Shown in pieces: positions 6,504 through 53,816 of a DNA stretch of 64,000 bases. Below the pieces are notes generated by a model that saw only the letters and a program-made list of their open reading frames with translations, searched no databases and was not told the DNA's origin. Position numbers and translations under genes: made by a program. Source of the stretch: Amphiscolops sp. MND2022 (lineage: Eukaryota); contig OZ076410.1 in the NCBI GenBank assembly GCA_964187785.1, forward strand, positions 11,160,001 to 11,224,000, in the 5' to 3' direction. Within the stretch, counting starts at the first letter, position 1. Every line of letters begins with the position of its first letter.

Positions 6504-6519
6504 CAAAACCTTTCATGTC

Positions 6520-8760: not shown

Positions 8761-8776
8761 CAAAACCTTTCATGTC

Positions 8777-20406: not shown

Positions 20407-20597
20407 AAAACGTTTTATCCGAACTTTGAAAACGATACATCCGAACTTTGAAAACGTTATATCCGAACTTTGAAAACGTTATACCCGAACTTTGAAAACG
20501 TTACATCCGAACTTTGAAAACGTTGCACGTGAACTTTGAAAATGTTACATCCGAGCTTTGGAAAACGTTATATTTGAACTTTGAAAACGTTATATCC
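20407..20597 (+). repeat. 22-bp minisatellite (AAAACGTTATATCCGAACTTTG), ~8.5 copies
   Basis: Directly visible tandem units. It lies just downstream of the AACAAG..CAAGTCGGCGCC terminus (20311) shared with the 47.9 kb and 55.5 kb repeats. Confidence 0.92.
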
Positions 20598-21640: not shown

Positions 21641-23018
21641 AACATGATCACGCGTTTGAAATTGAACGATCATTGTTGAACTAATTGCAGCACCAATGAC
21701 ATTGCCTCATCAAATTACAGTGGGTGTCACTCAATACTCAAAAAATCCTTGTTTCTCGGAAAATTCTCTTGCCCTTGACTTTTTCCACTTTTTTATAGGG
21801 ACCCGAACTCAGACTCACTGGCCGCTAGGTCGTTTCCTCTGACTTGCAACCCGGTTTGGAAATCGGCGGACCGTAGCTCTCAACCAGCCAGCCGCGTTCT
21901 GTGGTTTCGGATACATTCATGAGAAAAAAGTTTGTTTCTGCGTCGAAGCTTTCTTTCAGTGTTTTCGGTGAGCGCTTTTCCTCTCCGGTAGTTTGTTCCA
22001 TTTATAGCTTTGATTTCTTCAACAATTATTCTCACAGTTAATTCAATGTAGCCAACCATGGATAAGTTTGTATATGGTGTTGATTGTTTGTCAAAGTCAA
22101 GGTTCTTCCACCTGATTGAAAAAGGAGAAACTGATTGAAAAAGGAACTTGAAGTCAGCTGAATCTAAAAGAAATTTTTTGTCTTGTCAGCGGAATCGTGT
22201 TGCCTGTTGATGTGTTAGTTCAAGTGGGAATCAGCTTACGTAACCAGAAAACGATTTTCTCACGTCCATCTAGAGCGTTAGAGGTGTTCGGTTCCCATTT
22301 CCCATTTATTTTTGGTAATTTGGAAGGTGCGATCATGAAGAAAATGTTTTACAGTGACATCTGAAAGCGTGGTAGTGGAGTTTGGGGTAGTTGAGGTCGG
22401 CTTGCGGTGAACGGATGCGAAGAGCAAGCTTTCACTTTGCAGTCTGATAAAAACATACAGTAACTCGTCAAACTGGGTTTGTGTCTTGAAGGTTGTAGTC
22501 AAGATCGTCAATCAAATTGGGTCACTTTATTTTACCTTTGTCTGCTGTTTCAGGTCCAATGGTTTCATGTTGTATGATGAGATCTGTGTTTTGACAGCGG
22601 TAAACTGGTTTTCTTGGGTATCTGTTTTGGTTTTCTAATAGCTATAGCATGCATCAATATGTTTCCATGCTATATTCTTTGTAAAATCTACACTTTGCGT
22701 CGCTTGTCGAGGTGTCAACAATACTGATCGAAAGAATGATGTTTTCGCTTCTCTACTTTCGTATTTGTTTTCCCTCAAATAATGTGCATACAGTCTCCAG
22801 TCTCATGCTCTAAGAGAGTTTCCCTCTCGCGATTAATTTTCTGGTATCACGTTCTTTCACTAATTGGTTGGGTCTAATTTTCAGTACTCGGATGCGTCCT
22901 GTTGTTTTTTGAATTTTTTTTGGCTGTAATTGACTGGAGATTTAGATAAGGAAGGTGAATTAAAAGTAGTATATATCAACACAAAGTTTAATGCAAGATC
23001 ATGTAAACTGATAGCTAG

Positions 23019-24625
23019 TGTCGCAGGCTGCCGCCTGCGATGGCAATTTTTATCAAATTACGTTGGAAGGAGATAACTCTAACCCTCCGCCAGGAGTCCT
23101 TCCTATATAAACACTGACAAAGACCAAAAGGTCATTTAAACTACATGTAATTTATTACTATGTACAGTATTTTGAATTTTACCATGAAAGACCTGTGGTC
23201 CTTGCGGCCTCAGTGCAATTGATTATTTTAGTCCGCGAGGATGTATTTTACTATTTAGTAAATTATTTTGTGCCTGTTTTGTAATCTGAATGTTGGTGTA
23301 ATTAATAGAAAACGTGTAAATCAATGAATTAATATGATGTAATAGCATGTAGAAGAGGAAACGCGTTCAAATGAACGCCTCTTCTAATTCACTGTACTCG
23401 CTGTACCAGTATTTTGCACCAATCAAAATGCAGTATATTAGTGACGCTCCGTGGACAGAATGTCTGCCACGGTGAAATTAACGCACAAGTGCTGCTAGTG
23501 CTGTAATTGACTGTGGCTACGTGGACTTAACGTCCGCTATGGTGAAATGCTGTAATAACATGAAATCATGTATTTTGAAAGCATGTAATGTTGTAGATTA
23601 ATTCTGAATGTACTTACAGGCCAATATAAACGTTTTCTCTTTGTCGGCTTAACCGTCAAAATCCCCCCCATATGGCTCTTTGATGTATTGACGTCATGCT
23701 GACGTAACCATATTTGACGCTATTTTTAGTTTATCATAACTATATTTAGTAACATGACGCCTGTAAATTTGCTTGTCATGCAGATCAGGGTATATATAGG
23801 ACGGCCCAAGAGACCGTGGGGACCAATCTTTTGGAAGCTCAACTCGAAGTCACAATTCAACTCGAACTGTATTCAATTACAATTGAAACTTTACTTTCAG
23901 TACCATCTGTACATTTCACTCATTGACCATATAAACTTTAGTCTGTATTGCCAATTCATTGTTGTTGTGTTAATTTTCTTCAATGCCTTCAACGAGAAAG
24001 CAAAAGGCTAAAGAGAGACGCTCTAGACAGTTAGACATGCTGTCAGATGTAGAAAACGTTGACATAATGTTAGGTAGTTACTCTAGAGATGATGAAGAGA
24101 ATAATATTAGTGAAAATGAAGTGAATTTAGACTCAGGGTCTAGCAGGCCACAGCAAAGTTCAAACGTCTTAGGAGAGGATTTTAGGTCATTACCAAACAC
24201 AAATAGTAGAGAAAATAGTGAATTCACGATTGAGACTACAAGACTAATTAACGAAGAAATTTCCAGTCAAATGTCAAGAGAACTGATTGAGATTAAAACT
24301 AGTTTGAATTCCCAAATCCAAGAAGCAATTACTGACGCAATAACAAGTACAGTGCTTCCTTCTATTCAAAATGCACTAGAAATGCAGGGGAGACCTAATT
24401 TCACCATGGTGGACCGAAGGTCTGACGGGCTACATCTTAGCCCAAGGTCGACCGAATTCACCATAACGGACCAAAGGTCCAGTGGGCTACAACGGAACGC
24501 CGAAGTAGGAAATTCACAGAAAACGAAGGAAAATCGCCACAAAACGTGTTTCACTCAAGAAAATAGTAGACTGAGGTCTAGAGAGAGTTCAACAGACTCA
24601 AATAACAGCGAACAAATTCGCGACA
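23019..24625 (+). repeat. Element A 5' LTR (1607 bp)
   Basis: Matches 36130-37735 with about 11 substitutions and one indel counted by eye (~99%); 6-bp terminal inverted repeat TGTCGC/GCGACA. Confidence 0.97.
23689..23800 (+). promoter_or_regulatory. Candidate U3 promoter: palindromic TGACGTCA (CRE/ATF-like), TGACGTAA and a TATATATA box
   Basis: TGACGTCA 23689-23696, TGACGTAA 23700-23707 and TATATATA 23791-23798, ~190 nt upstream of the gag ATG. Motif match only. Confidence 0.4.
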
Positions 24626-24637
24626 TGGTGACAGGAG
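24626..24637 (+). promoter_or_regulatory. Element A primer-binding site, embedded in the gag reading frame
   Basis: TGGTGACAGGAG immediately follows the LTR-terminal CA. It has one mismatch to the TGGTGTCAGGAG tRNA-Leu-type PBS; the tRNA assignment is tentative. Confidence 0.75.
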
Positions 24638-25739
24638 CCAACCCTACCCCACATATGGTTCCTGAGTTCCTCACTGGACGTCCCATGCAATCCTGTGAAC
24701 CCCTGCAACGTCAACATTCCAACAATAACGAGTCTCAGGATACAATCCCCCAGGTTTCTGAGACTACAACACCTACTACCGGTTCTGACCCCATTAACCG
24801 TCTAGCTGAAGTATTGGTTGGCATGAACAATCGTCCATCAGCACAAACGCTAATGGTACGACCTGTCAGCTCCACCACACTGACTTTTGACGGTAAATCT
24901 GAGAAATTTGAACTTTTCGAAGATCTGTTTCATACAATGATAAAAATGCAGCCTGATATGACCGAAGCAATGAAAATCAATCATTTTCATTCCTTGTTAC
25001 GAAAAAATGCCCTCCAAACTTTTCGTAATATTAACACGGCAAATAGGCAAACATTAGAGGACATCCTAGCAGTATTTCGTAGGAAATACGTCAAACTAGA
25101 GTCCCAGGCGACCGCCAAACACAAATGGCACAGATTGGTGTTTGATCCAAATACCATGAAACTGCCAGACTTCCTTGAGGAATTAAATCAAGGAGCCGAA
25201 AAAGCGTTTGGCGAGAACGCCCAGGCCATGATCGATAGTCTCCTCTACGCCAAGTTACCCCCAAAACTGAAACGCTCAGTCAATATGGCTAGACTAGAAA
25301 ATGCAACTTATGAGGAAATAGTTACTCATCTACAATGAGAATTAGAACTCAACGGACTTGAGGAGGGTGACGACATTCCAGTCCCAACAATGTCTACGGC
25401 CCCGACAGCAACACGACCGGGTACAGGCCTTCTTTCCTATGGAATCGACCCGGGAATTACTTGCAATTATTGCAAAAAACCAGGTCATACAAAGGACGAT
25501 TGCCGCAAACTGAAACGGAAAGAAGAACAAAAACGCAACGACGGCCAGAATACCAGAAAAGAGTATCCAAAGTGCCCGACTTGTGACAAAACGAATCACC
25601 CGGCGGAACGGTGTTGGAAATGCGCAGGAGCCCACCTCAAACCTAAAAACCTCAAACTAGAGGACTCCAAAACCGACGACCCGTCCACTAGTAATAATGA
25701 TGTCCAAAACAAACAAACAACCTCTATCCTGAAAAACCC

Positions 25740-25746
25740 AAAAAAC
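25740..25746 (+). promoter_or_regulatory. Probable -1 ribosomal frameshift heptamer A AAA AAC at the gag end
   Basis: Immediately precedes the gag TAG; the downstream pol ORF (25881) is in the -1 frame relative to gag. Confidence 0.7.
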
Positions 25747-25749
25747 TAG

Positions 25750-28700
25750 ATTTGCCACGACTCCAATTTAATACAAAACTTCGTGTCCGACAATACATAA
25801 TATCAGACCCTTCAAACATATGATATACTGAATATTATACCTCTCTTAAAGAAACATCATCAGCTGACTGGCAGCAGCAGATGAAGACTCCTCCTACTTC
25901 TCACACCACTCTGGACCCTATGTCCAACAGACTACAAAATGATACTTCGACTATACGTCTCATACCTCTTGTGGATGACTATAACCCATACTACCCGGAC
26001 CCGGACTATGGTTTTGATCCCTATTGGGACGCTAATTGCTACAATCAACATCATCTATACTTCTACCGTAATTTCCACAAACCAAATCACATCAGAGAAC
26101 CAGATTCTTATGAAATTGATCGAGCCTTGAATATGGTTCTTGTGAAAGCCAAAGTCGATCCATGGCAACATGACACACCACAGAGATCTCAAGTCACTCA
26201 GGCTGAGCCCGACGATGAATTTCACCGTGCGGGACCCCAGGTCTCACTGGCCACAGCAGTTGCTGCCCGTTTTGCGACCACCCTAATCACAAGAACAGGT
26301 GAACCAGACTATGTACCGCTGACAACTAATCTTGGCCTCAAATATAAGAGACGAATGCTCTATTTTCCGATGGATTTTGGCGAACATTAGATGGCCTTGT
26401 AGACACGGGAGCCCTATCTAGCGCAATCCCAGAAGCTGATCTACGTAAAATCCGATTACTAGCCCTTCAGTCGATTGTCAAAGAGGGCCCGGCTCCTGGA
26501 TTCCAAATTATGGTTGCTAATGGACAGCTGGAGACTCCAAAGAGCACTGTCGAACTGAAATTTGAAGTCGGCGATATTGAATTTTACGAAATATTCATAG
26601 TCATGGAAAAACTCACCAGTCCATTGATTGGTCTTTCGTTCCTTCAGAGGAACAACACCATTCTGGATATGCGACAAGGTGTCCTGAATTTCCCATTCTT
26701 CTCAATGCAGTTAAAAACTGCAGATCACAAATACACAAATGTCATGGAGCCCATTTGCATTAGGGAGGATGTAACCATCCCACCTAATGACCGACAATCG
26801 GTCCTACTGGCGACACAACTGTACGAGAACACTACAGTTACTGGGATCCTTCAACCGAGCAACAACCTTACGGAAGATGGCGATATTGCTTTCTGTGCTG
26901 CTCTAGTCACATTGACCAATGGTCAAGCTTCAGTTCATTTGAATAATTTTACGGACAGTCCTTACACCCTCAAAAGGGGCACACAAGTTGCTACGTTCAC
27001 TGTTCTCACGCCAGAACAAATGTAATATGTCAAACCTATCGACCCGGTAACCACATGGCACCTGTTACAGGACAACCCTGAAAACGCTGCTTACTATGCA
27101 AGTAGCTTGATCAAATCCACCAAACCTGAGGACTTCAAGGAAAACTATTGGTTCCCAACACCAGAGAACCCAGGAGATACTCAGAATCATACACCTATCC
27201 AGAAAAGAATTTTATCAGAGCTCGTCAATCTTCAGGAACTGGAAAAACTTAATCCTCAGGACGACCCTGAGTCCAGACGTCAATTCCTATCCAACTTTGA
27301 TTGGACTGACTCTATGCTCCAACCCGCTGAAATTGCCCGCATAGAGGACTTGCTTGTTGAATTTCACGATATCTTCGCTAGGCATCGCTTCGACATAGGC
27401 ATGAACGAAGACTTCAAGGTCAAATTAACCCCGAAAGATGACTCCCCGGCCTATAGTCAAAGTTTGCCAACTCCAATCAATCTCAAGGAGGACATCCTTG
27501 TGGAATTGGCCTTACTCCACCGATATGGGATAATTACAACTCTACCATTCTCCAAATACGCCAGTCCCATTTTCGCACAAAAGAAACCCAATGGCAAATT
27601 GAGACTTCTAGTCGATTTGCGCAAAATTAACAACCTGATTTCGGATGACTATATTAACAACAATCATCCAGTGAGTACACTTTCTGATGCAGCCCAACAT
27701 ATGGCCGGAAAGAAGCTATTCTGTAAACTGGATTGCTCGCAAGCTTACCACTGTCTACAAATGGCTGACCAAAGGTCTATCGAAATGCTTGCCTTCAACT
27801 TCGCCAGCAGAACCTTTGCGTACAGAAGGCTAGCACAAGGACTTAGCAGAGCCCTATCGGCCTTTTCTAGCTTCATGCGCGAATATTTGGACAAAGTCAT
27901 CAAAGCCGACCAATGTGCCCAATATGTTGATGATATCGGAATAGCTGCTAATGATGCCGAACACTTTATCAAAAACCTTAGGGCCACATTTCAATGCATC
28001 CAAAAAGCCGGACTGAAACTTACAATGCATAAATGTCACTTTGGCGCAACCGAAATTGATTTCCTGGGTCGCACTATCACCCCGGCGGGAGTGAAGCCAC
28101 AACGACCACGGGTCCAAAATTTTCTGGAAAATACGAAATTTCCAAAATCAAAGAAAGCACTTCAGCGTTACTTGGGGTTCCTGAACTATTACAGGAACTA
28201 CATCCCAAGGCTATCAGAAAAACTAACACCGTTTTTCAAATTGCTTACGAAGGATGAAAAGGTCCTGGTCACACCGGACCTCCTGGAGAAATTCACCGAG
28301 ATAAGTAAGGCTCTTGATCGATGTTGTGAATTGGCACTCAAACAACCCCTTCCGAACAAGCAAATAGCACTTATGACTGACGCTAGCTTTTCGGCCGCAG
28401 GGTACGCAGTCCTCATCGAAGACGATCCCCACGAGAAATATACATCTACGAGGAAAGCCTTCGCACCAGTAGCTTATGGATCCAAGACCTTTAGTCCTAC
28501 CCAATTGAAAATGTCCATCTATGCAAAGGAATTCTTGGCCATTTTCTTTGCCTTCAAGGAATTTGGGCATATATTTTGGGGAACTCCAAAACCGGTGATA
28601 ATACTTACGGACAACAAATCAGTCACACGATTTTTTCAGACAAAAATTATTCCACCAACACTATGGAACGCATGTGACTATGTTATTCAGTTTAATTTCA

Positions 28701-30762
28701 CAATTGCCCATATACCAGGCAAAAACAACACCGCCGCAGACTATCTGTCCCGGCTCGAAACCTCTCCAAAAGAAAAATTGATCCTCAGGATACGAGAAGA
28801 TATCCCAACAACACCGATTGAACTACATGTCCAATCGGCGGGAGTGTCGGAAGAGGAACAAATTTTCTACACGGAGGATGACGACGAGACAGAAGAACAA
28901 ATTCTACAACGCAAAAAGGACGCAAGACACGATCCAGCAAATCAACTACCAGATATCTCATTCGAAAAATTCACTACACATAAAAGCGATTATCACAAAC
29001 TAACAACAATTCAAAAATTATCTTATACAAACACTATCGCAATCGAACAGAACAACGACGTCATCTTACAGCAATTGCGCCTTAAAATTCTGAAAGAAAA
29101 CTACTCCGAGACCATATTAATGCAAGACAATCGATACCAACATTACTGTCGCCAAATGGACCGGCTGTCTGTCATGGATGAAATTATCACTAGACAGTAT
29201 TTTGATGAAACAGGCTCTGTTAAATACAATCAAGTACTCTTACCTAAGCACTTAATTACAGAACTACTTGAATCTTTACACGGGAAAGCAAATAAACACC
29301 CGGGAATATCAAAAATGCTTATTGAAATTCGACAAAAATATTACTACCCTGGAATTGCGAAAATTGTTAAAAAATGGGTTCAGGGATGTGAAACTTGTAT
29401 CAAGGACAAAAGAATTCCAAATGCCTCTATCACCCCTGAACTCCTTAATTTGCCTGAATGGGACCTTGGACCAGAGGATGCAATGCAAATTGATCTGTTA
29501 CCAAATTTACCACCAAGTGGCGGATACGAAAATATCATCACCGCACTGGACGTGTTTTCAAGATATCTTTTTGCATATCCAGTCACGGATGCTTCGGCCA
29601 CAAATACGGCAAAAGTCATCATAGACATTATGACTAAACACACTTACCTGCCTACTACTTTGATTACTGACAAAGGTTCGGCCTTTACGTCCAAGCTAGT
29701 GGCTGAAATTGCTCAAATCTTGGGAATCCAAATAAAATGCGCAACTACAAAACACCCACAGACGATTGGTAAATTAGAAAGAACACATGCTAGTCTCAAA
29801 ACGAACCTCAAAATGGCCTCAGGGGACTACAGGCGACAGTGGCATAAATATCTGCCGTTAGCCGTATTGAACTACAATACAACTTATCATGCCACCCTGG
29901 GATGTGAACCATCTAGAATTTTCCACGGACGGATCCCATATAACATATTGGATCACAAATTGGGCCTTAATCCTATCCCTAAAGTCCTACCGACTACGGA
30001 TTTTGCAGACGAATTTCAGCGACGCACGCAAATATTACTAGATTCCACGAAGAAAAACATCATGCAGTCATATTTGAAGTACGAAGAATACTATGACCGG
30101 AAGGCCAAAGCGGCTCCTTTGAAACAGAATGACTATTGTTTTATACTACAACCTATTGCTGATTAGTTAGAAAACTCAATTCCAACAAAACGCAACTCCT
30201 ACACCGCATCAGGCTGCGCAAATATGAACCGAACACCGTCTTACAGGACATCAGACCGGAAGGCAATTTGCACCCGGACGACGAAATTATTATACCGCAA
30301 GACGATTTATATGTCATTACCTGGGAAACAAATTTTGGAGAATTTCGCAATTCCGCTGATACACATGCAATTCCCATGTGCCAAGATGACCTAGACAATT
30401 CTAGTAACTTTGACAATGATACCGCAACGCAAGACGAGATTTTCACCGACGTGGACCTTACGTCCATCGGGCCCACCATGAAAAGGGTGCCAGGGCCCCC
30501 GATAACAATTTCACCAGCGAGGACCTTGAGTCCCCCGGGCTACACGAAAATGACAATTTTGATATGATTCAAGAAACCTGCTCAGATCGCTTAAATGAAC
30601 AAATTGATGATCCTGAATCATAAGGAGGGAGCGATACTATCGTGCCCGAAGTATTAGACGATGAAAATGATGATGTGCTAGTAGACAATAAAAGTCCTAG
30701 GGGAGGAAAATACAACCTTCGTCCTAACCCCACCCCCAACTTCACTGATGAATACAGATACT
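25750..30762 (+). pseudogene. Element A pol: protease, RT, RNase H, integrase (disrupted)
   Basis: LVDTGALSS (~26400, after a frameshift at ~26385); stop at 27023-27025; RT (LRLLVDLRK, KLDCSQAY, YVDD); RNase H (TDAS, ELL/EFL region); IN HHCC and D,D35E (QIDL, ITDKG, KLER); deletion at ~30160; tail ends KYNLRPNPTPNFTDEYRY*. Confidence 0.95.
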
Positions 30763-30919
30763 AGACAAACTCTAAATTATCGCCCCTTTTTGAATAAATA
30801 CTTTAGCAGGGACTGAACTAACTTGCGAACTAAAGACATAATACGAATAATGAGAACGAATAAACAAAACGAAATATATACAAAAGAAAGACTACTGCAC
30901 ATGTATACATACAGTACAA

Positions 30920-32058
30920 TTATAGTTTAGATGTGCTTCCACTCGAATCACAAGACTTGGAAATTGGTGCCTCATCGGCCTCAGTAGCACTACGTTGGGA
31001 AGAGGGCTTGCCAGGGGATATACGGACCACCTTTGGAGATTTGCCTGAAGTAGACCGACCAGTCCCAGACACGGATGATATTCTTAGGCTAGAACTTAGG
31101 GTCTCTCTAATCTGTTGCCGACCAAAATGGTTGAAGCTGTCCCAAGGACTGTAGGTGCTTTCCAGACCAGTACCACCAAAGGTCGGCTCCAGATGTAGGA
31201 ATCGAGAAATGGAAGCTTCAGATGTGAGAGCGTCAAGTCCACGGGAAACGCTGCCGAGAAACGACTGTATGGGTGCCACAACATCAAACATGCTGCAAGT
31301 AGGATCATCGGTCCTCGCGGAATCAAATCGGACACCAGGGAAACTGAACCTGGGTTCGTCCAAGCAAAGGCAACAAAGGCGAAAGATTCTCGTGAGGCGA
31401 CGTCTGGTTTTGAGTGCCTCTTGACTTGATATGAATGTGGTAGCATCGGCAATAAGTAATTTCGGCTGCTGGACACCGGGATGGAGACGACGTAATTCAT
31501 CGATGAATGAAAGGTATTCTTCTGTGTACACTGGCTCTTCTCCTGGGTCCACGACCCCACGGAGCCTAAAACTGGAAAAAAGCTGCTTGAAACAATACAT
31601 GGCTTGTTCCACCGGGTCCACGAGAAGAACCTCCAGGTCAAAAGAGCCAAGCCCGCGCACAATATCGGAAGTGAAACGGTTGAGCTTCTGAGTGGCTCCA
31701 ACTAAATAAGCCACATACCCCCGGGCAGACCTACCGAACTCCTCACGATTGTTAGCAGTGATTTCTTCAAGGCTCAAGTTTTTGTTGTCCCCTTCATTGC
31801 GCTCTTTTTCGGCCTTTTGTTTGCAACCAATATCGAGACGGTGTCCGAGTTTGGAGCGGGTTATGAAGTCGTCTACCACCAGGGCTTTGGCTTCGGGGAA
31901 AGAGAATTGCAAAATACCATGATTGTCGTTGTCAGCAGGCAGACTACTAGGACGGATGCACCTGCGGGCAAGTTTGAAGAGGAATTGGCACAATTCCTTG
32001 TAAACGTGGAAACCTCTGTCCCGGCGCGACTTCAAGTTCAGTGTAAAACTGTTGGTGT
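30920..32058 (-). CDS. Antisense accessory gene, last exon (phase 1 entry; ~378 aa to TAA)
   Basis: The acceptor TTCCTTTTTAG at 32059 puts the preceding exon in frame with the 420-aa ORF. Confidence 0.8.
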
Positions 32059-32128
32059 CTAAAAAGGAATACATTGCGAAAAGCCCGATTATCACAGGAA
32101 TGAACAAACCGTCAAAAAACCCACTTAC

Positions 32129-32210
32129 AATCCTGGACCAGCCGGTAAAAAAGCTCAAGTCGGCTAGGGAAAAGGCAGTCATACACGATCGACCACTCCA
32201 GGTTCTGCGG
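32129..32210 (-). CDS. Antisense accessory gene, 82-nt exon (PQNLEWSIVYDCLFPSRLELFYRLVQD)
   Basis: Flanked by TTGTTCTAG (32211) and GTAAGT (32128); phases 0 and 1 are compatible with both neighbouring exons. Confidence 0.78.
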
Positions 32211-32281
32211 CTAGAACAATGGGAAACTTATGCACATATGGACTTGCGGTACCAGAAGCCACAAAGAAGTAGGATACTTAC

Positions 32282-32416
32282 TTGTCTTCGGACTCCTTGG
32301 TACTCTTGTGTCGGCGCATTCTTGCTCAAGTAAGAGTGGACTTTAGACCAATTGTCGAGGAGTTCTCTACACAAAGCAGGCAGTCCACAGATGTCCAACT
32401 GGCAAGTACGGATGGC
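32282..32416 (-). CDS. Antisense accessory gene, 135-nt exon (AIRTCQLDICGLPALCRELLDNW..VRRQ); may instead start at 32500 with one in-frame TAG
   Basis: Acceptor CTAAC..GTTTTAG at 32417 (alternative GAATAG at 32501); donor GTAAGT at 32281; phase 0 on both sides. Confidence 0.7.
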
Positions 32417-32548
32417 CTAAAACATGGCAATGGAAGTGTTAGGTCCATTGATTTCAGTCGATAACTTAGTGCATAGCTGCAGTGCTAACGTGTATCGCAA
32501 CTATTCAAAACTAAAGCTTAAGAACAGGGAGAATTAAGATCAGCATAC

Positions 32549-33034
32549 CCTTGATAATTCTGGCGAGAGCAGCACCCAACCCAGCTCCAGAAATCCTCCC
32601 AATGAAACCACAAGGTAACGCAGAGTGGAGAAGAAGTCCACACGCCCGAAAACACTCTGGCTCTTTCGGTGCATTAGTTGTGGCAATGACAATTCTTCAA
32701 ATCTGGAGGGACTTTGGACGCTGAAGGAACTGTACGGACTTAGATCCATCAATTGAATTGTCCTCATACTACAGCCAGTGCAGCTGATGAGTTTGGGAGT
32801 GGTGGAAATTGCCGCCATGATGTATGCAATCAGACAAATTTCGGCATCGGTCTGTCCTTGCAGCCTGCTGGTCCGTTTCAGTAAGACACGGCAAAGTTCG
32901 TCTTGGTACCAGAAGCGGACAAAAGCAAGCATGAAGACCCCATCACTCGCAAACTCCACGGCATATTCACCATTCGCGTTGATCTGGGCCGCTATGTGGT
33001 TGACGAGTTCACAAAACATGTGATGGAACAAAAC
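32549..33034 (-). CDS. Antisense accessory gene, 486-nt exon
   Basis: Acceptor TTTCATTGTTTAG at 33035 and donor GTATGC at 32548; exactly 162 codons. Confidence 0.78.
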
Positions 33035-33126
33035 CTAAACAATGAAACAATTTTGCGATCTAACCTGCTAGAACATCAGTTTAGTCAAAGTCATGGTACT
33101 TGGAATGGTTTTACGGGAAGACTTAC

Positions 33127-33678
33127 AGTCAATCGCTCTCGGCCCCAGTTGAAATCGGTGAAAAGAGCCTGGTGGTTCACTATGACTCCCACGTCATTCC
33201 AGAAAGCCTTTAACACTTCCAGGTCGCCATAATGTGTTAGGAATCGTCCAAGAACAGACAGTTGGATTCGTGCCCTGTTGTCCGACGAGGAAGCCATGTA
33301 GTCCGTACCCGACATATACTCCTCATAGAATGGGAGTTTCTGCCCGATCTCAACCAACACTTCGTGCCTGAATTTAGGAAGCTCCAATTCCAATTGATAG
33401 GGAGTCAAGGTCTTTCCATCTTTTCCTCTGACCTGATGTATTTTGGCCTTGGTGACTGGATCCACTTTATACAGGTGTTCGTACCTCCACCTCTGATCCT
33501 TGCGGAGATGTTTCTCGGTGGAGTGATGTCGAAGGATCTCCCTTGCCCCTTTTCCGTAAATCGATACGTTGGACTTACAAATCTGGCAGTAGAACTTGTA
33601 CGGGTTCCAACGTGTGTCTACTGGTCCAGATACGAAGGTGCGGTTCCAGTCGAGGGAACGGGAACAATCACCGGGGAC
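33127..33678 (-). CDS. Antisense accessory gene, zinc-finger exon (FYCQICKSNVSIYGKGAREILRHHSTEKH)
   Basis: Open for 184 codons in the frame of ORF 33091-33465; ends at a phase-0 GTAAGT (33126); CxxC..H..H at 33588-33508. Confidence 0.78.
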
Positions 33679-34250
33679 TCAGACAATTTTGGTCTTTCAG
33701 TTTCTGGTGGTAAATTGGGGGAAGAACTTAGTTGGATTGGCTCACTGACGCTACATTTCGCCTGTCGACCACTGGGTCCGGGTTCGCCTTCTACCTCAGC
33801 TCGTGTTTCAAGTTTACGGGTGAGATAGGCCTGTATGCTTTCTCCGGAACTGCTCCCATCCGTTCCAAGCAAATTAAGCAATGAGGGAGAGTAGTCAGGT
33901 GACTGTAGTCCCGGGGCACCAGTGTCCATTTCGGTCATGGCAGCAGGGGACAATCCACCTCCCGTTCCTTGAGTACCCGAAGCCTGGGAAGACCCTTCTT
34001 CAATTATCTCTATAGCAGTAGGCAGCACATTTACAAGAGGCAGTTGGCCAGAAGCTTGGGGAATTGGGGCATCTGAGCTTCTCTCCACCCCATGACCAAG
34101 GGTCTCATTGGCCGCCGCGTCTTCAGTGATTCCAGTACCACTGCTCATGTTGTTACTCTCAGCAGCTGTTTGGTTTGGTTGGCCGTTTGGTTCCTTTTCT
34201 AAATAGAAAGGAATAAATTCGCGCGGTTCACTTCCTGCATAAGAATCCAT
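33618..34250 (-). CDS. Low-complexity S/G/E/P-rich ORF; probable N-terminus of the antisense gene, joined by a frameshift or a small intron
   Basis: Good ATG context (CTAGATGG); overlaps the zinc-finger frame by ~60 nt in a different frame. Confidence 0.55.
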   Translation of the reverse strand: MDSYAGSEPREFIPFYLEKEPNGQPNQTAAESNNMSSGTGITEDAAANETLGHGVERSSDAPIPQASGQLPLVNVLPTAIEIIEEGSSQASGTQGTGGGLSPAAMTEMDTGAPGLQSPDYSPSLLNLLGTDGSSSGESIQAYLTRKLETRAEVEGEPGPSGRQAKCSVSEPIQLSSSPNLPPETERPKLSESPVIVPVPSTGTAPSYLDQ

Positions 34251-35402
34251 CTAGCCGCTTTTGAAAATCTTCCGGAAGTAAAGTTCATTTCATTCAACCC
34301 AATGTGAAAACATTTCATGATGGAGGAAGTAAAGTAGTCAAGCCTAAACCCTGATCAAGTTTAGTCAAGACAAATTAAAAGAACCAACCTGATGCAATTT
34401 CCATGACGGGGAAGCAGAATTCTTTTACTCCAAAATCGGCTGATTGGGGGTACAATTCCGAGGGAGGGACAGTGAGATTCTGGAAGACTCCTTTAGAAGA
34501 TTGACGGCTGTGAGTTTAGCTGTTACTGTAGCCAATGCGACTTAAAGTCCATGCCTCGCGTTGGGGAATTGGATACTCAATGGGATAATTAAGCAATTCA
34601 AGTATTGAATGAGAAAAGGAGTGAAGAATACTGGATCACAGACACAGAAAGTGAATTATTGTATAATACTAATACTTGTACTTTTCAACTTTACTAGACT
34701 TACAGTCAAGTTACGCAATATCTTAAGCCTCGAACACTATCAATTACTTATTATCTTACTTGGACGTCGTGGTCTACTGACTACTTCTTTCATTTATAAT
34801 TATATACCAATTATGCCATATTCCCTTATTACATTTAGTCAATTATAATCCCTTTTAGCATGGATTGAGACTGCCAGTGATATTCATGTCTTTATTCAAT
34901 TATGGAAATCATTTCTCCGTTTAGAGCAGTATTAGTTTAGAAAATCGTCAGTTTCATTCATTTTTCATCCATTTTCATCATTCATTTATCAACGACACCT
35001 CATTGGCTACTTAACTTGATGTAGCCGAGCGGACCGAAGGTCTTTGATGGTGGATTTATTTACTGACGGTTAACTTGAGTTAACACTTATTACACCTTTT
35101 CACTACTATCAAGTAGTTGTGCAAACAACTACAAGGCCCTTCATAGACCAATTAACAAGAAGTTTACCTTACTTATGATTTCTGGAACTTCGGCAAAATC
35201 TACTTATATGGAATGTTTAGTAAAGATTTAGGGAAGATCAGAAAACCGTTTCCCCGCCAGGAAACCCCGCGAAAATGAGAAGACCGGCAGTCCAAGTAGC
35301 TAGAAGAGAAATCATTCATCACAATTTGAAAAGTGCAAATCAGTTGAATAAAGAAACCTCAGAATTGCGAAGAAAATCTTTCTTAGTAGATTTCGAAATA
35401 AG

Positions 35403-36221
35403 ATGGAAATGAATCTACCGTTCATCCTAGACGACCTCTCAGTTCTCCCGGTCAGTCCTAGTTACTACTCTTCTGACGAAGAAATGGATGTGGACATTCA
35501 GTCAGTCAGTGCTACCAGAGACGACACTGAAGATAGTGATATAGAGGTTATCGCGTGTTACCGACAAGTGCCGATCCAGTCAGAAGGGCAAGTTGCAGGA
35601 CGTAAAATGACTGTGGAGTTGACTGAAGGTACAGAGGACACTTACTCAGATTTTCCTTGGGAAGATTTTGATAGTATGATGCGATTGGTCGACAGTCAGG
35701 CCGACCCTCTGGACAGGGGAGCAGGGCCAAGTACTGCTACCCAAAGCAGTAGTCCACCCATAAAATATTGTGGGAGTCTAACGCCTATAGTCGACTCACC
35801 GCAATCTCCCCCGCCACACGAACGTGGGCCGACTTATGGTCCGAGCGACAATAACTTGTCCCCGCAGCTTAATCAGCCGCTACCGCTGAGTTCACATATA
35901 CAAGGGATCAGCGTGAGAATGGCCTCCCATTGTGGACAGCCTAATTCGGCAATAAATGGGGACTGTATTGTTTGTGGACGCAGTTACGAACAAATAAAAG
36001 AAACAGCAGTACTAGACTTCCTAGAAAGCACGACCTACAGAGGTGAGAATTACGCAGACCGATTGAGAAGGAGAGCAGCCTACTTAGCCGGAATGGACCA
36101 GGGGACAGTGCTCTTCATCCCTAGGGGAGTGTCGCAGGCTGCCGCCTGCGATGGCAATTTTTATCAAATTACGTTGGAAGGAGATAACTCTAACCCTCCG
36201 CCAGGAGTCCTTCCTATATAA
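35403..36221 (+). CDS. Sense accessory ORF (272 aa; acidic disordered N-terminus, HC..CxxC C-terminal domain) overlapping the PPT and 3' LTR
   Basis: Intact ATG-to-TAA ORF; crosses AGGGGAG|TGTCGC at 36129/36130 and ends 92 nt inside the LTR. No env-like transmembrane segment is visible. Confidence 0.72.
   Translation: MEMNLPFILDDLSVLPVSPSYYSSDEEMDVDIQSVSATRDDTEDSDIEVIACYRQVPIQSEGQVAGRKMTVELTEGTEDTYSDFPWEDFDSMMRLVDSQADPLDRGAGPSTATQSSSPPIKYCGSLTPIVDSPQSPPPHERGPTYGPSDNNLSPQLNQPLPLSSHIQGISVRMASHCGQPNSAINGDCIVCGRSYEQIKETAVLDFLESTTYRGENYADRLRRRAAYLAGMDQGTVLFIPRGVSQAAACDGNFYQITLEGDNSNPPPGVLPI
36121..36129 (+). promoter_or_regulatory. Element A polypurine tract
   Basis: CTAGGGGAG abuts the 3' LTR start TGTCGC; the purine run is short. 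Confidence 0.7.
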
Positions 36222-37735
36222 ACACTGACAAAGACCAAAAGGTCATTTAAACTACATGTATTTTTTTACTATGTACACTATTTTGAATTTTACCATGAAA
36301 GACCTGTGGTCCTTGCGGCCTCAGTGCAATTGATTATTTTAGTCCGCGAGGATGTATTTTACTATTTAGTAAATTATTTTGTGCCTGTTTTGTAATCTGA
36401 ATGTTGGTGTAATTAATAGAAAACGTGTAAATCAATGAATTAATATGATGTAATAGCATGTAGAAGAGGAAACGCGTTCAAATGAACGCGTCTTCTAATT
36501 CACTGTACTCGCTGTACCAGTATTTTGCACCAATCAAAATGCAGTATATTAGTGACGCTCCGTGGACAGAATGTCTGCCACGGTGAAATTAACGCACAAG
36601 TGCTGCTAGTGCTGTAATTGACTGTGGCTACGTGGACTTAACGTCCGCTATGGTGAAATGCTGTAATAACATGAAATCATGTATTTTGAAAGCATGTAAT
36701 GTTGTAGATTAATTCTGAATGTACTTACAGGCCAATATAAACGTTTTCTCTTTGTCGGCTTAACCGTCAAAATCCCCCCATATGGCTCTTTGATGTATTG
36801 ACGTCATGCTGACGTAACCATATTTGACGCTATTTTTAGTTTATCATAACTATATTTAGTAACATGACGCCTGTAAATTTGCTTGTCATGCAGATCAGGG
36901 TATATATAGGACGGCCCAAGAGACCGTGGGGACCAATCTTTTGGAAGCTCAACTCGAAGTCACAATTCAACTCGAACTGTATTCAATTACAATTGAAACT
37001 TTACTTTCAGTACCATCTGTACATTTCACTCATTGACCATATAAACTTTAGTCTGTATTGCCAATTCATTCTTGTTGTGTTAATTTTCTTCAATGCCTTC
37101 AACGAGAAAGCAAAAGGCTAAAGAGAGACGCTCTAGACAGTTAGACATGCTGTCAGATGTAGAAAACGTTGACATAATGTTAGGTAGTTACTCTAGAGAT
37201 GTTGAAGAGAATAATATTAGTGAAAATGAAGTGAATTTAGACTCAGGGTCTAGCAGGCCACAGCAAAGTTTAAACGTCTTAGGAGAGGATTTTAGGTCAT
37301 TACCAAACACAAATAGTAGAGAAAATAGTGAATTCACGGTTGAGACTACAAGACTAATTAACGAAGAAATTTCCAATCAAATGTCAAGAAAACTGATTGA
37401 GATTAAAACTAGTTTGAATTCCCAAATCCAAGAAGCAATTACTGACGCAATAACAAGTACAGTGCTTCCTTCTATTCAAAATGCACTAGAAATGCAGGGG
37501 AGACCTAATTTCACCATGGTGGACCGAAGGTCTGACGGGCTACATCTTAGCCCAAGGTCGACCGAATTCACCATAACGGACCAAAGGTCCAGTGGGCTAC
37601 AACGGAACGCCGAAGTAGGAAATTCACAGAAAACGAAGGAAAATCGCCACAAAACGTGTTTCACTCAAGAAAATAGTAGACTGAGGTCTAGAGAGAGTTC
37701 AACAGACTCAAATAACAGCGAACAAATTCGTGACA
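36130..37735 (+). repeat. Element A 3' LTR (1606 bp), including a duplicate gag N-terminus (37093-37740) that is stopped by the TAG of the TSD
   Basis: Direct repeat of 23019-24625. Confidence 0.97.
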
Positions 37736-37844
37736 GCTAGACTGTATCGTATGTAGCAACTTCCATGAATGTTCGTACAGTATGGTCTATGTTAGCAGTT
37801 GGCAGGTACTAAGAACTTAAAAGCCATAGTGGCATCTTCTCTCA

Positions 37845-37855
37845 TTCCCCCCTTT
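37845..37855 (-). promoter_or_regulatory. Element B polypurine tract
   Basis: AAAGGGGGGAA on the minus strand, adjoining the 3' LTR. Confidence 0.85.
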
Positions 37856-38169
37856 GTAGTTCAGGGAAACCATTGCTGACCCTCTGTAGGCTCCCATTTG
37901 ATCAGGGTTTCGGCTTGTGCACTTTCTCTCTTGATTTTCGGGAAAGGATGTCGCAGAAATCGTTGGAGTGGGCTGGAGAACTCTAAACGACTTAATTAAA
38001 TTAAAAATACTCTACCCCTCCTAATTTCACGGTTCGCTTAGCGTCCTTTATTCTATTAAATCTACGAAGATCTGCTGATGGTTCAATTGGTTTTTTGTGA
38101 TTTTTTGGTTCCTTTTTTTCTATTGTTTTTAAGTTACCTTTTCTGGGGCTTGTTGTTCTTTCTTCGGCG

Positions 38170-41100
38170 TTACTTCGGCGCTGACGGTTGCGCGTATCGG
38201 TGTTTGTAGTTCGCCTTCCGGTTGAGTCGGGTGCGTACCGCAGCTAGTGGCGGCAGCGTGTTTACTTCTTGCGTGTTTTCCTCTTCGGTCGGTTGTGTTT
38301 CCGTCACGGTGATTGTTGTGTTCGTCTGTGGTTCATTTTTCTCCGCTGGTTCGTCTTGTTTGTTTGGGCTGTCCGACTCTGTGTCGGTAACGGTGATGTC
38401 GCCGTAAGTCGACCTTTTTTCTGGCATTGTCGGGAGAGTGTAGCTGCAACTTGGTTCATCTGTGTCTTTTGCGAGCCCATATAATCTTTTGTGCGTGTCA
38501 CAGTAGTTCTCTTGACTGAACTTTCCGCACCTGATGCAGCGGTTAGTTCTTCTTTGGTCTTCTATTCTCTTCCGGTTTCTTTGACAACTGAAATTTTATC
38601 GGTTTTGACGCTAACTTTTTATGTATTATTTTTCCTTCGGACGTGGTTACGGGTATGCTTAGGTTCATTTACGGCTGTTAGTATTTTGTTGGTTTTGAAT
38701 CTACATTTCATTGCATTGGGTTTGTTTTCCTTTTCAAAAATTGGTATTGTTTAAATTCCCGTCTTACCGATCTAGCTCTTTTCTTTGAGTCGTTAAGAAC
38801 CAAATAGTCTGCCATTTCTCCCTCTGAGTCGTTAATCGTAAACATTTGCAGCTCAGTGGGTGTGCTAGAACGTAATTGGTCAATGTCTTTTTCCAATTAG
38901 AGAGAAGACATTCTGATCGACCGATTAGATTGGTTATCGCCGTGCGTGGTTTGCGTCCAAAGTGAATTTGGAATGGCGTCATGTTCAATTTACTATGTGG
39001 AGTCTGTCTGATTGTTTTAGTCGCTAAATTAACACCCTCTTCAAATGTTAAGCCGTCCGCCATATTTGCTCTAGTTAATGACTTAATTGTCCCTATGGTT
39101 CTTTCCACTTGGCCGGTACCCGTATGTAAATTCGGTGTGCATCGGATGCGCTTCATGTTTTCTTGGTTACAAAATTCTTTAAATTCGTTACTTTTAAAAC
39201 AACTACAGTTGTCGGTACGTATGCTCAGTGGTGTTCCGTTATCTGAACAATATTTCGTTAAAAATTTTAAAACTGTCCGCGAGTCGGTATTTTTACAAAT
39301 TTGGGCCATTGGCCATTTACCAAAACGATCGACTGTGACTAAAATATATACATCGCCGCGAGTCTTTGTTTTATTGGACCAGCGAAGTCCAATTGGATCT
39401 CTTGGTTCGGTTCGGACAAAATTTCTAGATTGTTTTTCTCCGTTGACGGTAATTGTGATGTTAAGTTCTTACCTGACGCCCTGCAGCTCGGGCAGTTTTC
39501 GGCTTTCTCTCTTATTTCCCGGTACAAGCCAGGCCACCAGAATGCTGTGGATGATTGATCCATCTTAGTGGCTGAAGGATGTCCTTGATGGAGCATGGCG
39601 ATAATTGTAGTTCTCATTGCTTCGGGTATGACAATCTTGTCGTTATAAAAGAGTAGGCCGAATCGGGTTGTTAGACGATATCTATGTGGTCGATAAGGAT
39701 AAAAGACTTCTTCGATTTGATTTCTTTCAATAGCGGTAATGGCGTTTAAAATTTTCACGTCTCTCGCTGTATCTTCTACTAGCATGGGTAGATCGAGTGC
39801 GAAGTCGTTTTCAGCTCTTTTAATTGTGTCTTCGGTCCGTTCATTGTGCTCATCGTTCAAAGTGTTCGTTTTGACGGTTTGTTTCAGCCGGATTAGATTG
39901 ACGGTCTCGTGCTTTCGGAACTTCTTAATAGCATTTGTGGGGCATTTTTTTGTCTGATATTGCTGGTTTGACTTTCGGTATCGGCCGATTGTGTGATCCA
40001 CGACTCGTGATTGTTTAGTTGAAATTCTTTCAATGGTGTCGTTCCCAGCGTTTCGCAGAAGCTGAAGAATCTATTGAACATTTGTAGGTTCAGTTCCACG
40101 ATTCTTTTTCGGACCTGTTGTGAAGGTCGGTATTCCTGCAGTCTCTCATTGTCAGTTCGTTTGCCAACAATTCTCATCTTTTTAGGTTTCAGGAGTCTTT
40201 TCCGTTCTGTCCAGAGCCTGAGGGTATCTGGTGAATGTTCTCTCTTCTTGAAGATGAAATGCATGTCTATGCCATTTACTTTGTCCATTTTTGATGTTGT
40301 TGCGGATTTATTTAAATGTTTTTTGGACAAGATTTGATTAACGCCGTTCAGTGGTATTGAAGTTTTGAGCAAATGAGTTTGTTTATTTTGTTCACGCTTG
40401 CATGTGCCGCGCTGTGGTTGGTCTGTTTTTTGTTTCGGTTTGGTTCGTTCTGTGAATCTTTTTATGCTTCCGTTCGTTTGAATGAAATCGAATAGGCCGT
40501 GTATTTGATTTATCACGAACTCCTCCTCGGATTCCGCTTCGTTTTGACAGCTAAAATTGTTCCCTGCTGCGTTCTCACCGGTGTTTACGATCGGATGCCG
40601 GCTTAAGTATTCCGTCAGCGGAATGTTTCTACCAGCTGTATATTGAACGTTAACATCGAAATGGCTCAATCTGTCTAGCCACCGTGTTAATCTAGCGCTG
40701 TATTGTTTGTGCGCCCTACTTCTTTTTAACAACGGTTGTAGCGCTTGGTTGTCCGTTAACAAATTTACCCTCTTTCCGTAAACGTAAGACCTGAAGTACT
40801 CTAGCCCCCACAGCGCTCCTAGTAATTCTAGTTCATTAATGGCGTATTTTCTCTCACAATCCGTGAAGAATCTACTAGGTAACGCAATTGGTCTGAAGAG
40901 TTCCTCCTCTTTCTGCCACAATGTCGCTCCGAGTCCCGTGTTGCAAGCATCAGTCGTCACATAATTTTCCTTCTTCGGGTCGAAGTGAGCCAAGAATGGT
41001 GATTCAGTCATTTCTTTTTTCAGGTTTTTGAAATCTTCAGGCGTCCATTCCCAACGGGCCTCTTTTTTCAACAATCTTCTAATTCTATCGGTTTTCTTGG

Positions 41101-42300
41101 ATAGAATATTGATGAATTTTGACAGGTGTTGTATTGAGCCTAGAGAGGACTTGAGTTCTTTAGCGTTCTTTGGGACATTCAGTTTTGTTATCGCTTCTGT
41201 CTTGTCCTTTATTGGTTTTTACTCCGTTTTGATCGATGTGGTAGCCCGGCCAAGTTATCTCCTGTTTGAATAATTCGGTTTTCCTCTCACTCGCCCTGTA
41301 TCCGGCGTTTTGTAATTTTGTGAGTACTTCTCGAACTTCACGTTCGTATTCGTCCATTGTTCCGTTGGTTACGCAAATAATGTCGTCCAACCAGACCGGT
41401 GTTTTGAATTCCAGCACCTTGTCAATGTGCTCCTGGAACACGGTGGGGATATCCGACAGCCGGTAAAATCCCTTCTTGAACCGATAATGACCGGTGAAGT
41501 CGCCGCCAATTATCGAGAAGACACAGTGTTTTGCTGCTTCCACGGTTAATTTCGCTTGTCCGTAAGCGTAGTCCAAGTCAATCTTTGACATCCAAATTTC
41601 CCCACTATTACGGGTGATCTCCACCGATATTTTGCAAATTAGTTCCTCCATATTTGGCATTGCCGCTTTCCTCTTGACGCATGCCTCATTCAATTTTCTC
41701 GAATCAAGAGCTATTTTTACGGACTTATCTTTCTTTATTGCTATGACAGCCGGTGAGACGAAACAGTTTTCCGTAGTGTTGTCTGCTTTTTCCAGATGTC
41801 CACTTTCGATTAGCTTTTCTAACTCTTTCTTGACCGTCTTTTGAAAATGTATCGGACCCGGTCGTCCTTTTTGTTGTATCGGCTTTGTGTCCTTTTTCAG
41901 TTGAATGTCAATGGCTAAATCTTTGATAGTGTGATTGTTTTTGAATAGATCTTTGTATTCATTTACAATCTTCTGTCGTCTTTCATCTGTTTCGATGTGT
42001 CGGATGATTTTCGTGTTCGTGTTCCCTTGTAGTCCAATTTCTAGTATATCTAGCCAATCCAGTCCCAGCAAGGGTTGGGTGTTTTTGTTCTCGGTTATCA
42101 GTATGGGATGTGTTGATTTGCTTTTTTCCGTTTTCACTTCAACCATAGTCTCACCTTGAACTTTATTGGATCTGTATTTACGTCTACGAAGCTTTTTGTG
42201 GTTTTGTGTAATTCCGCTGTATTAATTATAGGCGGTATTATCGTTACTGGAGAGCCAGTGTCAATGATAAATCCCTATTGGCTGTCCTTGAACCAATAAT
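38170..42300 (-). pseudogene. Element B pol (PR, RT, RNase H, IN), multiply frameshifted
   Basis: IIDTGSP (~42260); RT (KIALDSRKLN, SKIDLDYAY, WLDDI); RNase H (TTDACNTGLG, NELE); IN (HQGHP..C.SC, QLDFAGP, IRTDN, GQVER). Confidence 0.92.
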
Positions 42301-42325
42301 ATCGCTTTGTAGAAATCAATCCGGT

Positions 42326-43265
42326 TTATGCTGTTGACGGATTATATATCATTAATCTCGGGCCATGACTCGGTGTTACTGTCCGTTGATGGTTCTTTTT
42401 GTATCCGGTTAACGTTTTGGATTTGCACACTTTGGCAAAATGTCCCATTTTCTTGCAGTTGTTACACTGTGCTCGCCGTCCTGGGCGAATATGTTCCAAT
42501 GACCAGTTTGGTTTATTGCAGAAATGACAGTTACGGTTTGGCATTTTTTTCTTCCCCGTTTCTACTATTTTTCGTTTCCGTGCTGGCTGTGTGTGTGCGA
42601 CTTGTTCTTCGCTTGATGAGCTTTCCAGCTGGAGTTTTCGGTATTTTTTGTTTGTTTTTTTTGTCTCCTTATTTGCGGTTGTAATTGTCTTGTTCGATGG
42701 TTTCAAGGACCATTTGGAGTTTCAGTGGCCCTTTCATGAGTTTGTCTTGGGCTTTTTTGTCGTTAATAGTTGCTGCAAACTTGGAAGTGATAATTTCTTC
42801 CGGTGTAATGCTGTTGAATTCGCATTTTTTCTCAAATTCCACCAGTCTTTTCCAATATTCATCTAGCGTTTCGGTTTCTTCTTGTTGGATTTTGAAGAAT
42901 TGTGCTCGGCTGTGAAATACATTTCTTGCAGGTATGAACGTTTTCTTGAATAGCTTCAGCAGTTCTGGGAGATCAATGTCTTTTAACTCTTTGCCCCATT
43001 GGCCTCTCATTATTTCGTGTTTGGCCTTGGGACCTAGTGCCCCAATGACGTCTCCTTTGACATGATACACTGTATGTGGATCTATTCGATCGATACCTTG
43101 ATCCATCAGTTCGTCCAAATTTCGGTTATATGTAAGGTGTATATACTCCGAAATTTGTTCCCACCACATTCGTGGGTTTGTTTTGGTCAGGTCTGTCTCT
43201 CTGTCCGATAAAATCGGTATTTTGTATTTATTCTTCTCCAGTCGGTCTGCTGTCGTCTGGTTCAT
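42326..43265 (-). pseudogene. Element B gag with CCHC knuckle, disrupted
   Basis: ORFs 42669-43265 and 42326-42706 (CNNCKKMGHFAKVC). Confidence 0.85.
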
Positions 43266-43340
43266 TATCGTTTGGTTTGCGGCCGGTTGGCCGGATTGGA
43301 TTGTTCCGAGGTACTCGGGTCTGAATTGTTGTCCATTAAA

Positions 43341-43355
43341 TTGCTGACTGCGCCA
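43341..43355 (-). promoter_or_regulatory. Element B primer-binding site (tRNA-Ser-like)
   Basis: TGGCGCAGTCAGCAA directly after the LTR-terminal ATTACA on the minus strand. Confidence 0.8.
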
Positions 43356-43553
43356 TGTAATTGACTGGAGATTTAGATAAGAAAGGTGAAATAAAAGTAG
43401 TATATATCAACACAAAGTTTAATGCAAGATCATGTAAACTGATAGCTAGACTGTATCGTATGTAGCAACTTCAATGAATGTTCGTACAGTAAGGTCTATG
43501 TTAGCAGTTGGCAGGTACTAAGAACTTAATAGACATAGTGGCATCTTCTCTCA
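43356..43553 (-). repeat. Element B 5' LTR (198 bp)
   Basis: Six substitutions versus the reassembled 3' LTR (~3%). Confidence 0.95.
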
Positions 43554-53659: not shown

Positions 53660-53816
53660 ATTTTCGGTAAAAAGTAGTTCCCCGTTAAAAGGCGAGCTAT
53701 TTAAAAAAGGGAAGGAAAGTACTAAAAATCTAAGAAAAATGCTGAAATCAATCTAGGGAAAATGAAAACCAGACAAAAGGATATAAGATGTTTTGCCTCG
53801 AGATCTCTGAACCTAC

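Follow-up and report, generated by a model that had tools for sequence, protein, structure and literature searches.

An accessory reading frame that extends into the 3′ LTR

The window analyzed here is a 64,000-nucleotide (nt) stretch of contig OZ076410.1 (GenBank assembly GCA_964187785.1, positions 11,160,001 to 11,224,000, forward strand) from Amphiscolops sp. MND2022; positions are numbered within it. It contains a Ty3/Gypsy long terminal repeat (LTR) retrotransposon with gag, pol, an accessory gene on the antisense strand, and a second accessory open reading frame (ORF) on the sense strand that runs into the 3′ LTR (Table 1). A first-pass annotation had described this 272-amino-acid (aa) ORF as entering U3 by 92 nt, which the ORF coordinates and the LTR pair bear out: the 3′ LTR begins at the TG of codon V243, and the last 92 nt of the ORF, stop codon included, are LTR. 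The proposed resemblance to HIV-1 nef and mouse mammary tumor virus (MMTV) sag also holds as far as the coding overlap with U3 goes, a likeness that is geometric only. One internally deleted copy (L062) consists of an LTR, the accessory ORF, and an LTR, without gag-pol, the antisense gene, or the initiator (Inr)-like motif described below.

The accessory ORF is conserved across a large Gypsy clade

Against its own genome, the window protein gave 142 scored matches, ranked by score and hence favoring intact copies. Three more distant query proteins each hit 139 to 146 further genomic places, and a profile search recovered 631 relatives at an E value of ≤0.001. The gene occurs in hundreds of copies in this genome, in a large Gypsy clade within which it is ancient, at approximately 32 to 98% protein identity; none of the 10 clusters of relatives that were looked up is named. 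Distant-family ORF copies were also seen 3.4 kb apart (G000:C2:3067448, 3070832, and 3085272; L124 and L126), possibly a tandem LTR-ORF array.

Fifty copies, picked across families and not at random, were fetched for comparison, and all 50 have the same tail, S[QP]xAACD..[GN]xLP[ILTF], with a stop codon at the corresponding position. For 41 of them, the extent of the overlap follows directly from the LTR pair: 92 nt in 31 near copies and 86 to 89 nt in 10 distant ones; the 5′ LTR match is incomplete in the other 9. The ratio of nonsynonymous to synonymous substitution rates (dN/dS) between the window and 10 family representatives was 0.10 to 0.16 in four pairs and 0.38 in one, with five saturated. 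For codons 252 to 272, which lie in U3 beyond a hairpin at the LTR start, it was 0.00 to 0.30 in 7 of the 10 pairs (three saturated), and the stop codon at one tail position varies among TAA, TAG, and TGA. These two observations indicate that selection acts at the protein level on the tail encoded by the LTR. For comparison, the unsaturated pairs for reverse transcriptase (RT) and integrase gave 0.01 to 0.04, apart from a single value of 0.14. The first-pass annotation had named ORF conservation and dN/dS across copies as the check on its proposal; with 106 of the 142 matches lacking an internal stop, down to 53 to 57% identity, and a dN/dS of approximately 0.1, the ORF is neither disrupted in most of these matches nor neutral.

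The hairpin, a stem formed by the first 24 nt of the LTR, is paired in 98% of cells, with G-U tolerated, and its TCG and GCC codons are nearly invariant. These properties would suit an ORF that is no gene and is open by chance or through overlapping cis-signals (polypurine tract [PPT], att, or hairpin). This view is, however, contradicted by the low dN/dS over the whole ORF and past the hairpin, and also by synonymous turnover in the GVLPI tail and the three stop codons at one position, and we regard it as practically untenable. The stem itself showed no compensatory change on both sides, and 273 of 500 shuffles scored as high for covariation; the SQAAACD segment encoded there is probably under dual constraint. 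Judged from these comparisons, the accessory ORF is almost certainly a real, selected gene.

An earlier claim, that the ORF stays intact while gag and pol have decayed, did not survive. Across 16 sister copies, we counted 5 lesions in 13.1 kb of ORF versus 28 in 65.7 kb of gag-pol, or 0.38 versus 0.43 per kb (binomial P = 1.0), and at that rate an 819-nt ORF stays undamaged approximately 70% of the time. The ORF appears better preserved because it is shorter than gag-pol, and selection took effect while the lineage was replicating and did not act on the window copy.

A predicted non-AUG start upstream of the first AUG

Of 51 copies, 46 have the motif [KRE]IA[KR][KR] in frame ahead of the first AUG; the remaining 5 are damaged or differ by a single substitution. 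The Ile of the motif is encoded by ATT or ATA without exception, 5 to 13 codons upstream of the AUG. Over ten extension codons, the proportions of synonymous (pS) and nonsynonymous (pN) differences were 0.76 and 0.19 among 10 near families, with 0 stops, and 0.79 and 0.27 among all 17; the other two frames over the extension contain 2 and 8 stops, and in the six codons upstream pN exceeds pS. By this pattern of substitution, the pre-AUG extension is under protein-level purifying selection. The start context, YTC-AAA-ATW-GC, is well kept among the 17 family representatives (C at −4 in 16, A at −3 in 16, and G at +4 in 17) and resembles the invertebrate CAAA-ATG context, and the leader is free of ATG in all 17. 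What precedes the AUG is, in short, a near-cognate codon in a strong context with coding conservation starting at it. A splice acceptor or an upstream AUG was considered as a source of the pre-AUG peptide; in eight copies, the stretch from the preceding stop to the motif contains no AG and no AUG, so that neither source is possible there. The coding frame probably starts 13 codons upstream, by predicted non-AUG initiation at ATT 35364. Ribosomes beginning there would make a long form with a basic amphipathic N terminus, probably a targeting signal, and leaky scanning past the ATT to AUG 35403 would make a short form.

A predicted internal promoter

Upstream of the ATT, at a distance of 50 to 78 nt, 15 of 17 family representatives have TCATT[CT] followed by CAGT with a spacing of 28 to 29 nt, a combination found in shuffled sequences at 0.49 hits per 10 kb. 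We regard these motifs as Inr-like and downstream promoter element (DPE)-like, respectively. A similar TCATTC lies approximately 30 nt 3′ of the LTR TATA in several families (by eye), and this placement supports the initiator reading. The possibility that CAGT is a 3′ splice site is disfavored by the absence of a pyrimidine tract, the fixed spacing, and an in-frame stop downstream in the window. An internal promoter, with a predicted transcription start site (TSS) near 35300 to 35400, is likely on this motif evidence. As we picture it, a TATA-less, Inr/DPE-type promoter at approximately 35312, back-to-back with the antisense promoter, would give an unspliced mRNA ending in the 3′ LTR.

Features of the accessory protein

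As first noted from the sequence, the N terminus is acidic, with 24 D/E versus 5 K/R in the first 100 aa. It includes DSDIEVI, in which IEVI with DSD upstream matches the published SUMO-interacting motif (SIM) core, V/I-x-V/I-V/I with acidic and CK2 flanks (PMC2808386). The motif had already been called SIM-like, an idea that gains from the distant families. In a tree of 30 full-length proteins (taken from 39 by dropping near-duplicates and proteins with neither motif), 17 proteins of the window's clade have DxDI[EQ]V[ILF], 13 distant ones have the forward, phospho-SIM-like [VI]IxISSD/PIYLSSD (for example, LVIISSDDEE), and none has both. The rates of these motifs in shuffles were 0.2% and 0.8%, respectively. 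A genome search identified no single-exon SUMO.

Farther along the protein, four cysteines are conserved: C123 (61/69), C188 (97/106), C191 (103/109), and the U3-encoded C249 (107/110). A metal site previously drawn as HC..CIVC needs revision, since H176 is kept in only 12 of the 54 sequences that have a residue there and distant families lack the H176/C177 segment; C188 and C191 are the conserved part. We infer that C123, C188, C191, and C249 are candidate zinc ligands; the structure model has moderate to low confidence at these positions. The full-length AlphaFold model is poor (pLDDT of 44), and a helical hairpin near the C terminus is predicted confidently. Fold searches with the C-terminal domain against the PDB and BFVD returned nothing at an E value of ≤0.001; in VIA, the best hit (Z score, 5.3; root mean square deviation [RMSD], 2.4; 45 aligned) is a generic helical hairpin. 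Neither novelty nor difference follows from these searches. Profile searches with the window protein found 0 Pfam families and 0 PDB sequences. The judgment that the protein is not an env also stands: the highest 19-residue hydropathy (max KD19) is 0.75, and the transmembrane anchor or hydrophobic signal of env and env-like ORF3 proteins is absent, although no dedicated signal-peptide predictor was used.

The [DEY]-[ST]-P-x-S-P-P motif at residues 131 to 137 is conserved and reads YSPLSPP in some families; we presume that it could be a proline-directed kinase/Pin1 site or a Pol II CTD-like mimic.

These properties bear on the possibility of a Tas/Tat-like transactivator, in which the acidic, aromatic-rich N-terminal half would be an activation domain, the Cys/helical domain would recognize the LTR or internal promoters by binding DNA or a host factor there, and the SIM would be regulatory only. 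The acidity of the N-terminal 100 aa, the conserved SPxSPP phospho-sites, and the predicted internal promoter, as in foamy virus tas/bet, are consistent with such a role. The C-terminal part, however, is not basic (16 D/E versus 12 K/R), and SIM-like motifs are the best-conserved N-terminal features; we consider a transactivator unlikely.

A short or absent purine tract at the LTR junction

The PPT had been placed in codons I-P-R-G. We find the purine run to be only AGGGGAG, in R-G-V, the I-P codons being pyrimidine-rich. The purine run before the 3′ LTR is 6 to 8 nt in 14 of 17 family representatives and only AG (2 nt) in 3; PPTs of 8 to 49 nt are reported for Ty3/Gypsy LTR elements (PMC7264820). 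The three AG-only representatives read CTTTTCATTGC[TA]CCCGCAG/TGTCG, a pyrimidine-rich junction ending in CAG/TG. In the family without a purine tract, LTR pairs are 99.3 to 100% identical in five fetched copies (L132, L134, L136, L138, and L140), and such near-identical LTRs indicate recent insertions without a purine tract and with the frame kept. Tracts this short, and their near loss in a family with such LTRs, could point to a particle or replication factor that acts at reverse transcription or integration, for example, by aiding plus-strand priming or by tethering the integration complex to SUMO-rich chromatin, a targeting task that the SIM could serve. We think this quite unlikely: the protein has a separate predicted promoter rather than being a Gag/Pol fusion, and coding constraint alone can account for the missing purine tract.

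The antisense gene and the host element

The antisense accessory gene, present in every family, starts 1.1 kb from the sense accessory gene on the opposite strand and has its own conserved motif set. The spacer between the two looks like a predicted divergent promoter pair. On the antisense side, the promoter region (34269 to 34279 and upstream) has conserved ACTTCCGGAAG, ACTTCCT, and TTGATCAGG motifs; the ACTTCCGGAAG palindrome is presumably ETS-like. Regarding a hAT origin of this gene, Pfam and PDB profile tests yielded nothing useful, and the resemblance to hAT transposases is by eye only. Six mosaic copies (L052, L064, L066, L068, L070, and L072) are 84 to 97% identical to the window in gag-pol and 93 to 97% in the ORF, with antisense cassette DNA at 65 to 67%; cassette exchange was thus seen in 6 of 12 compared copies.

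The pol order of protease, RT, RNase H, and integrase places the element in Ty3/Gypsy, and an LTR pair with TG..CA ends, differing at 12 positions, is flanked by a target site duplication (TSD). None of the best 120 RT relatives is named. A dUTPase-like domain lies between protease and RT (26753 to 26995; Pfam E value of 0.0035, below the cutoff) and recalls those of bdelloid and planarian Gypsy elements. The 214 gag codons inside the LTR (23983 to 24625 and 37093 to 37735) are under purifying selection (dN/dS of 0.06 to 0.29); with gag starting and the accessory ORF ending in an LTR, both ends of the repeat contain coding sequence. An older minus-strand LTR element, at approximately 37736 to 43555, has the present element inserted in one of its terminal repeats (repeat parts at 22925 to 23018, 37731 to 37846, and 43356 to 43555). 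Elsewhere, the window has a near-perfect tandem duplication (2782 to 10571; period, approximately 2257 nt) and tandem arrays with units of 35 nt (52938 to 53670), approximately 182 nt (59073 to 60633), and 22 nt (20383 to 20586).

Table 1. Features of the retrotransposon and its accessory genes, in window coordinates
Feature	Position	Strand	Remarks
TSD GCTAG	23014..23018; second copy 37736-37740	+	5 bp; flanks element
LTR retrotransposon	23019-37735	+	LTR pair with TG..CA ends; TSD GCTAG
5′ LTR	23019..24625	+	1607 nt; TATA at ~23791; holds first 214 codons of gag
gag (DUF1759, zinc knuckle)	23983..25746	+	ATG within LTR; in-frame stop at 25336 in window copy
Primer-binding site (PBS)-like TGGTGACAG	24626..24634	+	Candidate PBS; gag reads through
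pol (protease, dUTPase-like, RT, RNase H, integrase)	25752..30761	+	Several stops and frameshifts in window copy
First accessory gene	30923..34250	-	Apparent GT-AG introns; C2H2/BED-like finger; ~0.97-kb internal deletion in window copy
ACTTCCGGAAG palindrome	34269..34279	-	Upstream of antisense ATG; CTTCCGGAA core in 12/13 family representatives printed
Inr-like TCATTC	35312..35317	+	Predicted TSS of sense accessory gene; conserved motif
CAGTTG	35341..35346	+	28-29 nt from Inr-like motif, fixed spacing; presumed DPE-like
Likely non-AUG start ATT and 13-codon extension IAKKIFLSRFRNK	35364..35402	+	Basic, amphipathic; conserved in-frame motif
Accessory ORF	35403..36221	+	272 aa; 285 aa counted from ATT
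SIM-like DSDIEVI (aa 44-50)	35532..35552	+	Alignment; published SIM core
C123	35769..35771	+	Conserved, candidate zinc ligand; alignment
CxxC (C188, C191)	35964..35975	+	Conserved; alignment
Helical hairpin (aa 195-210, 217-232)	35985..36098	+	Confidently predicted; AlphaFold, 111-sequence alignment
Short PPT AGGGGAG	36123..36129	+	7 nt, within codons R-G-V
3′ LTR	36130..37735	+	1606 nt; coding over first 92 nt
Stem-loop/inverted repeat	36130..36153	+	10 bp; LTR start; overlaps codons SQAAACD including C249

A possible SUMO-binding adaptor

We favor, at a probability of roughly one-half, a reading in which the accessory protein is a nuclear SUMO-binding adaptor that keeps the element expressed and is made from a non-AUG-started, U3-overlapping gene with its own promoter. 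SUMO is needed for silencing of transposable elements in flies and mammals (PMC9406493). The acidic, serine-rich SIM would bind SUMO on chromatin silencing factors, the C-terminal helical domain, with its four conserved cysteines (one U3-encoded), would bind a partner, and SUMO-dependent silencing of the element would be blunted. The same SIM suits recruitment as well as sequestration, and the protein might instead restrict its own element, controlling copy number by recruiting SUMO-dependent repressors. We find such self-restriction highly unlikely, as the carrier families are young and abundant, with >100 matches each.

Several points weigh against the adaptor reading, under which we infer the counter-silencing function. 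SIM-like motifs often arise by chance (PMC2808386). Our SIM patterns were composed after the alignment was seen, and the switch between them is one branch of the tree (support, 100/99), a single event and not repeated convergence. The promoter pattern was likewise derived from the same sequences in which it was counted, and its CAGT motif is one base off the Drosophila DPE position. The dN/dS ratios are approximate, with dS close to saturation, and part of the invariance of SQAAACD and C249 may reflect DNA-level constraint (att or hairpin). Finally, the antisense cassette is exchanged in copies with a 93 to 97% identical ORF, which speaks against the two accessory proteins being close, specific partners.

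More speculatively, and with considerable doubt, an env-less animal Gypsy clade may have independently evolved the layout of complex retroviruses: back-to-back accessory genes, coding U3 and U5, an ATT-initiated SUMO-binding anti-silencer overwriting the PPT, and a young family that transposes with no purine tract and primes the plus strand otherwise, with the hairpin as a possible guide.

Little is known in animals about regulators of host silencing that retrotransposons encode, and the accessory protein belongs to an unnamed family that selection has maintained throughout a clade numbering hundreds of copies. Its gene shows nef/sag-like U3 coding overlap outside retroviruses, and the family that lacks a purine tract offers a way to test the sequence rules of plus-strand priming. 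For annotation, ORF callers restricted to AUG would overlook the conserved N terminus.

Comparison with known systems

Like HIV-1 nef and MMTV sag, the accessory gene is a 3′ ORF with coding sequence in U3. It differs in belonging to a Gypsy element without env, in an overlap of only 86 to 92 nt, and in its likely non-AUG start. Nef is myristoylated at Gly2; neither this residue nor the type II transmembrane segment of Sag has a counterpart in the accessory protein (N termini, MEM/MAK). Pfam and PDB profiles gave no homology to Nef or Sag, and a comparison of folds is confined to the helical hairpin, the only confidently modeled part. nef lies partly and sag wholly in U3, and an MMTV promoter just 5′ of the 3′ LTR gives an unspliced sag mRNA (PMC12789967).

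Foamy virus tas/bet are accessory genes by the 3′ LTR with an internal promoter, and in FFV a U3 microRNA cassette overlaps the bel2/bet 3′ end (PMC6950176). The accessory gene shares the position adjoining the 3′ LTR, and the Inr-like and CAGT pair predicts an internal promoter for it; it differs in showing no homology that we found, in being a predicted unspliced single ORF, and in having an antisense gene as its back-to-back partner.

Extra ORFs between pol and LTR are known from plant elements (PMC11963269; PMC7264820) and bdelloid elements (PMC5408684; PMC6431247). In the passages on plant elements cited here, they are antisense, or env-like if sense, and overlap with the PPT or LTR is not described; in the present element, sense and antisense genes coexist. 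The ORF3s of bdelloid Juno, Vesta, and TelKA encode env, transmembrane, or coiled-coil proteins or enzymes (GDSL and DEDDy), with dUTPase in pol (PMC5408684), and in the Tor elements of Oikopleura, which have env, Tor3b and Tor4b have an internal promoter for the third gene (PMC4402516). All are invertebrate LTR elements with a third gene, as here, but Pfam and hydropathy place the accessory protein in none of their types, and its coding sequence continues into the LTR. Searches of the open-access literature turned up no account of a Gypsy element in which a sense ORF crosses the PPT and enters U3.

The accessory gene resembles the Nef, Sag, and env systems in layout and is a member of none, having no homology to them and no transmembrane segment. 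The U3 overlap itself is known from nef and sag; new here are the likely non-AUG start, the predicted internal promoter, the erosion of the PPT, and the switch between SIM-like motifs.
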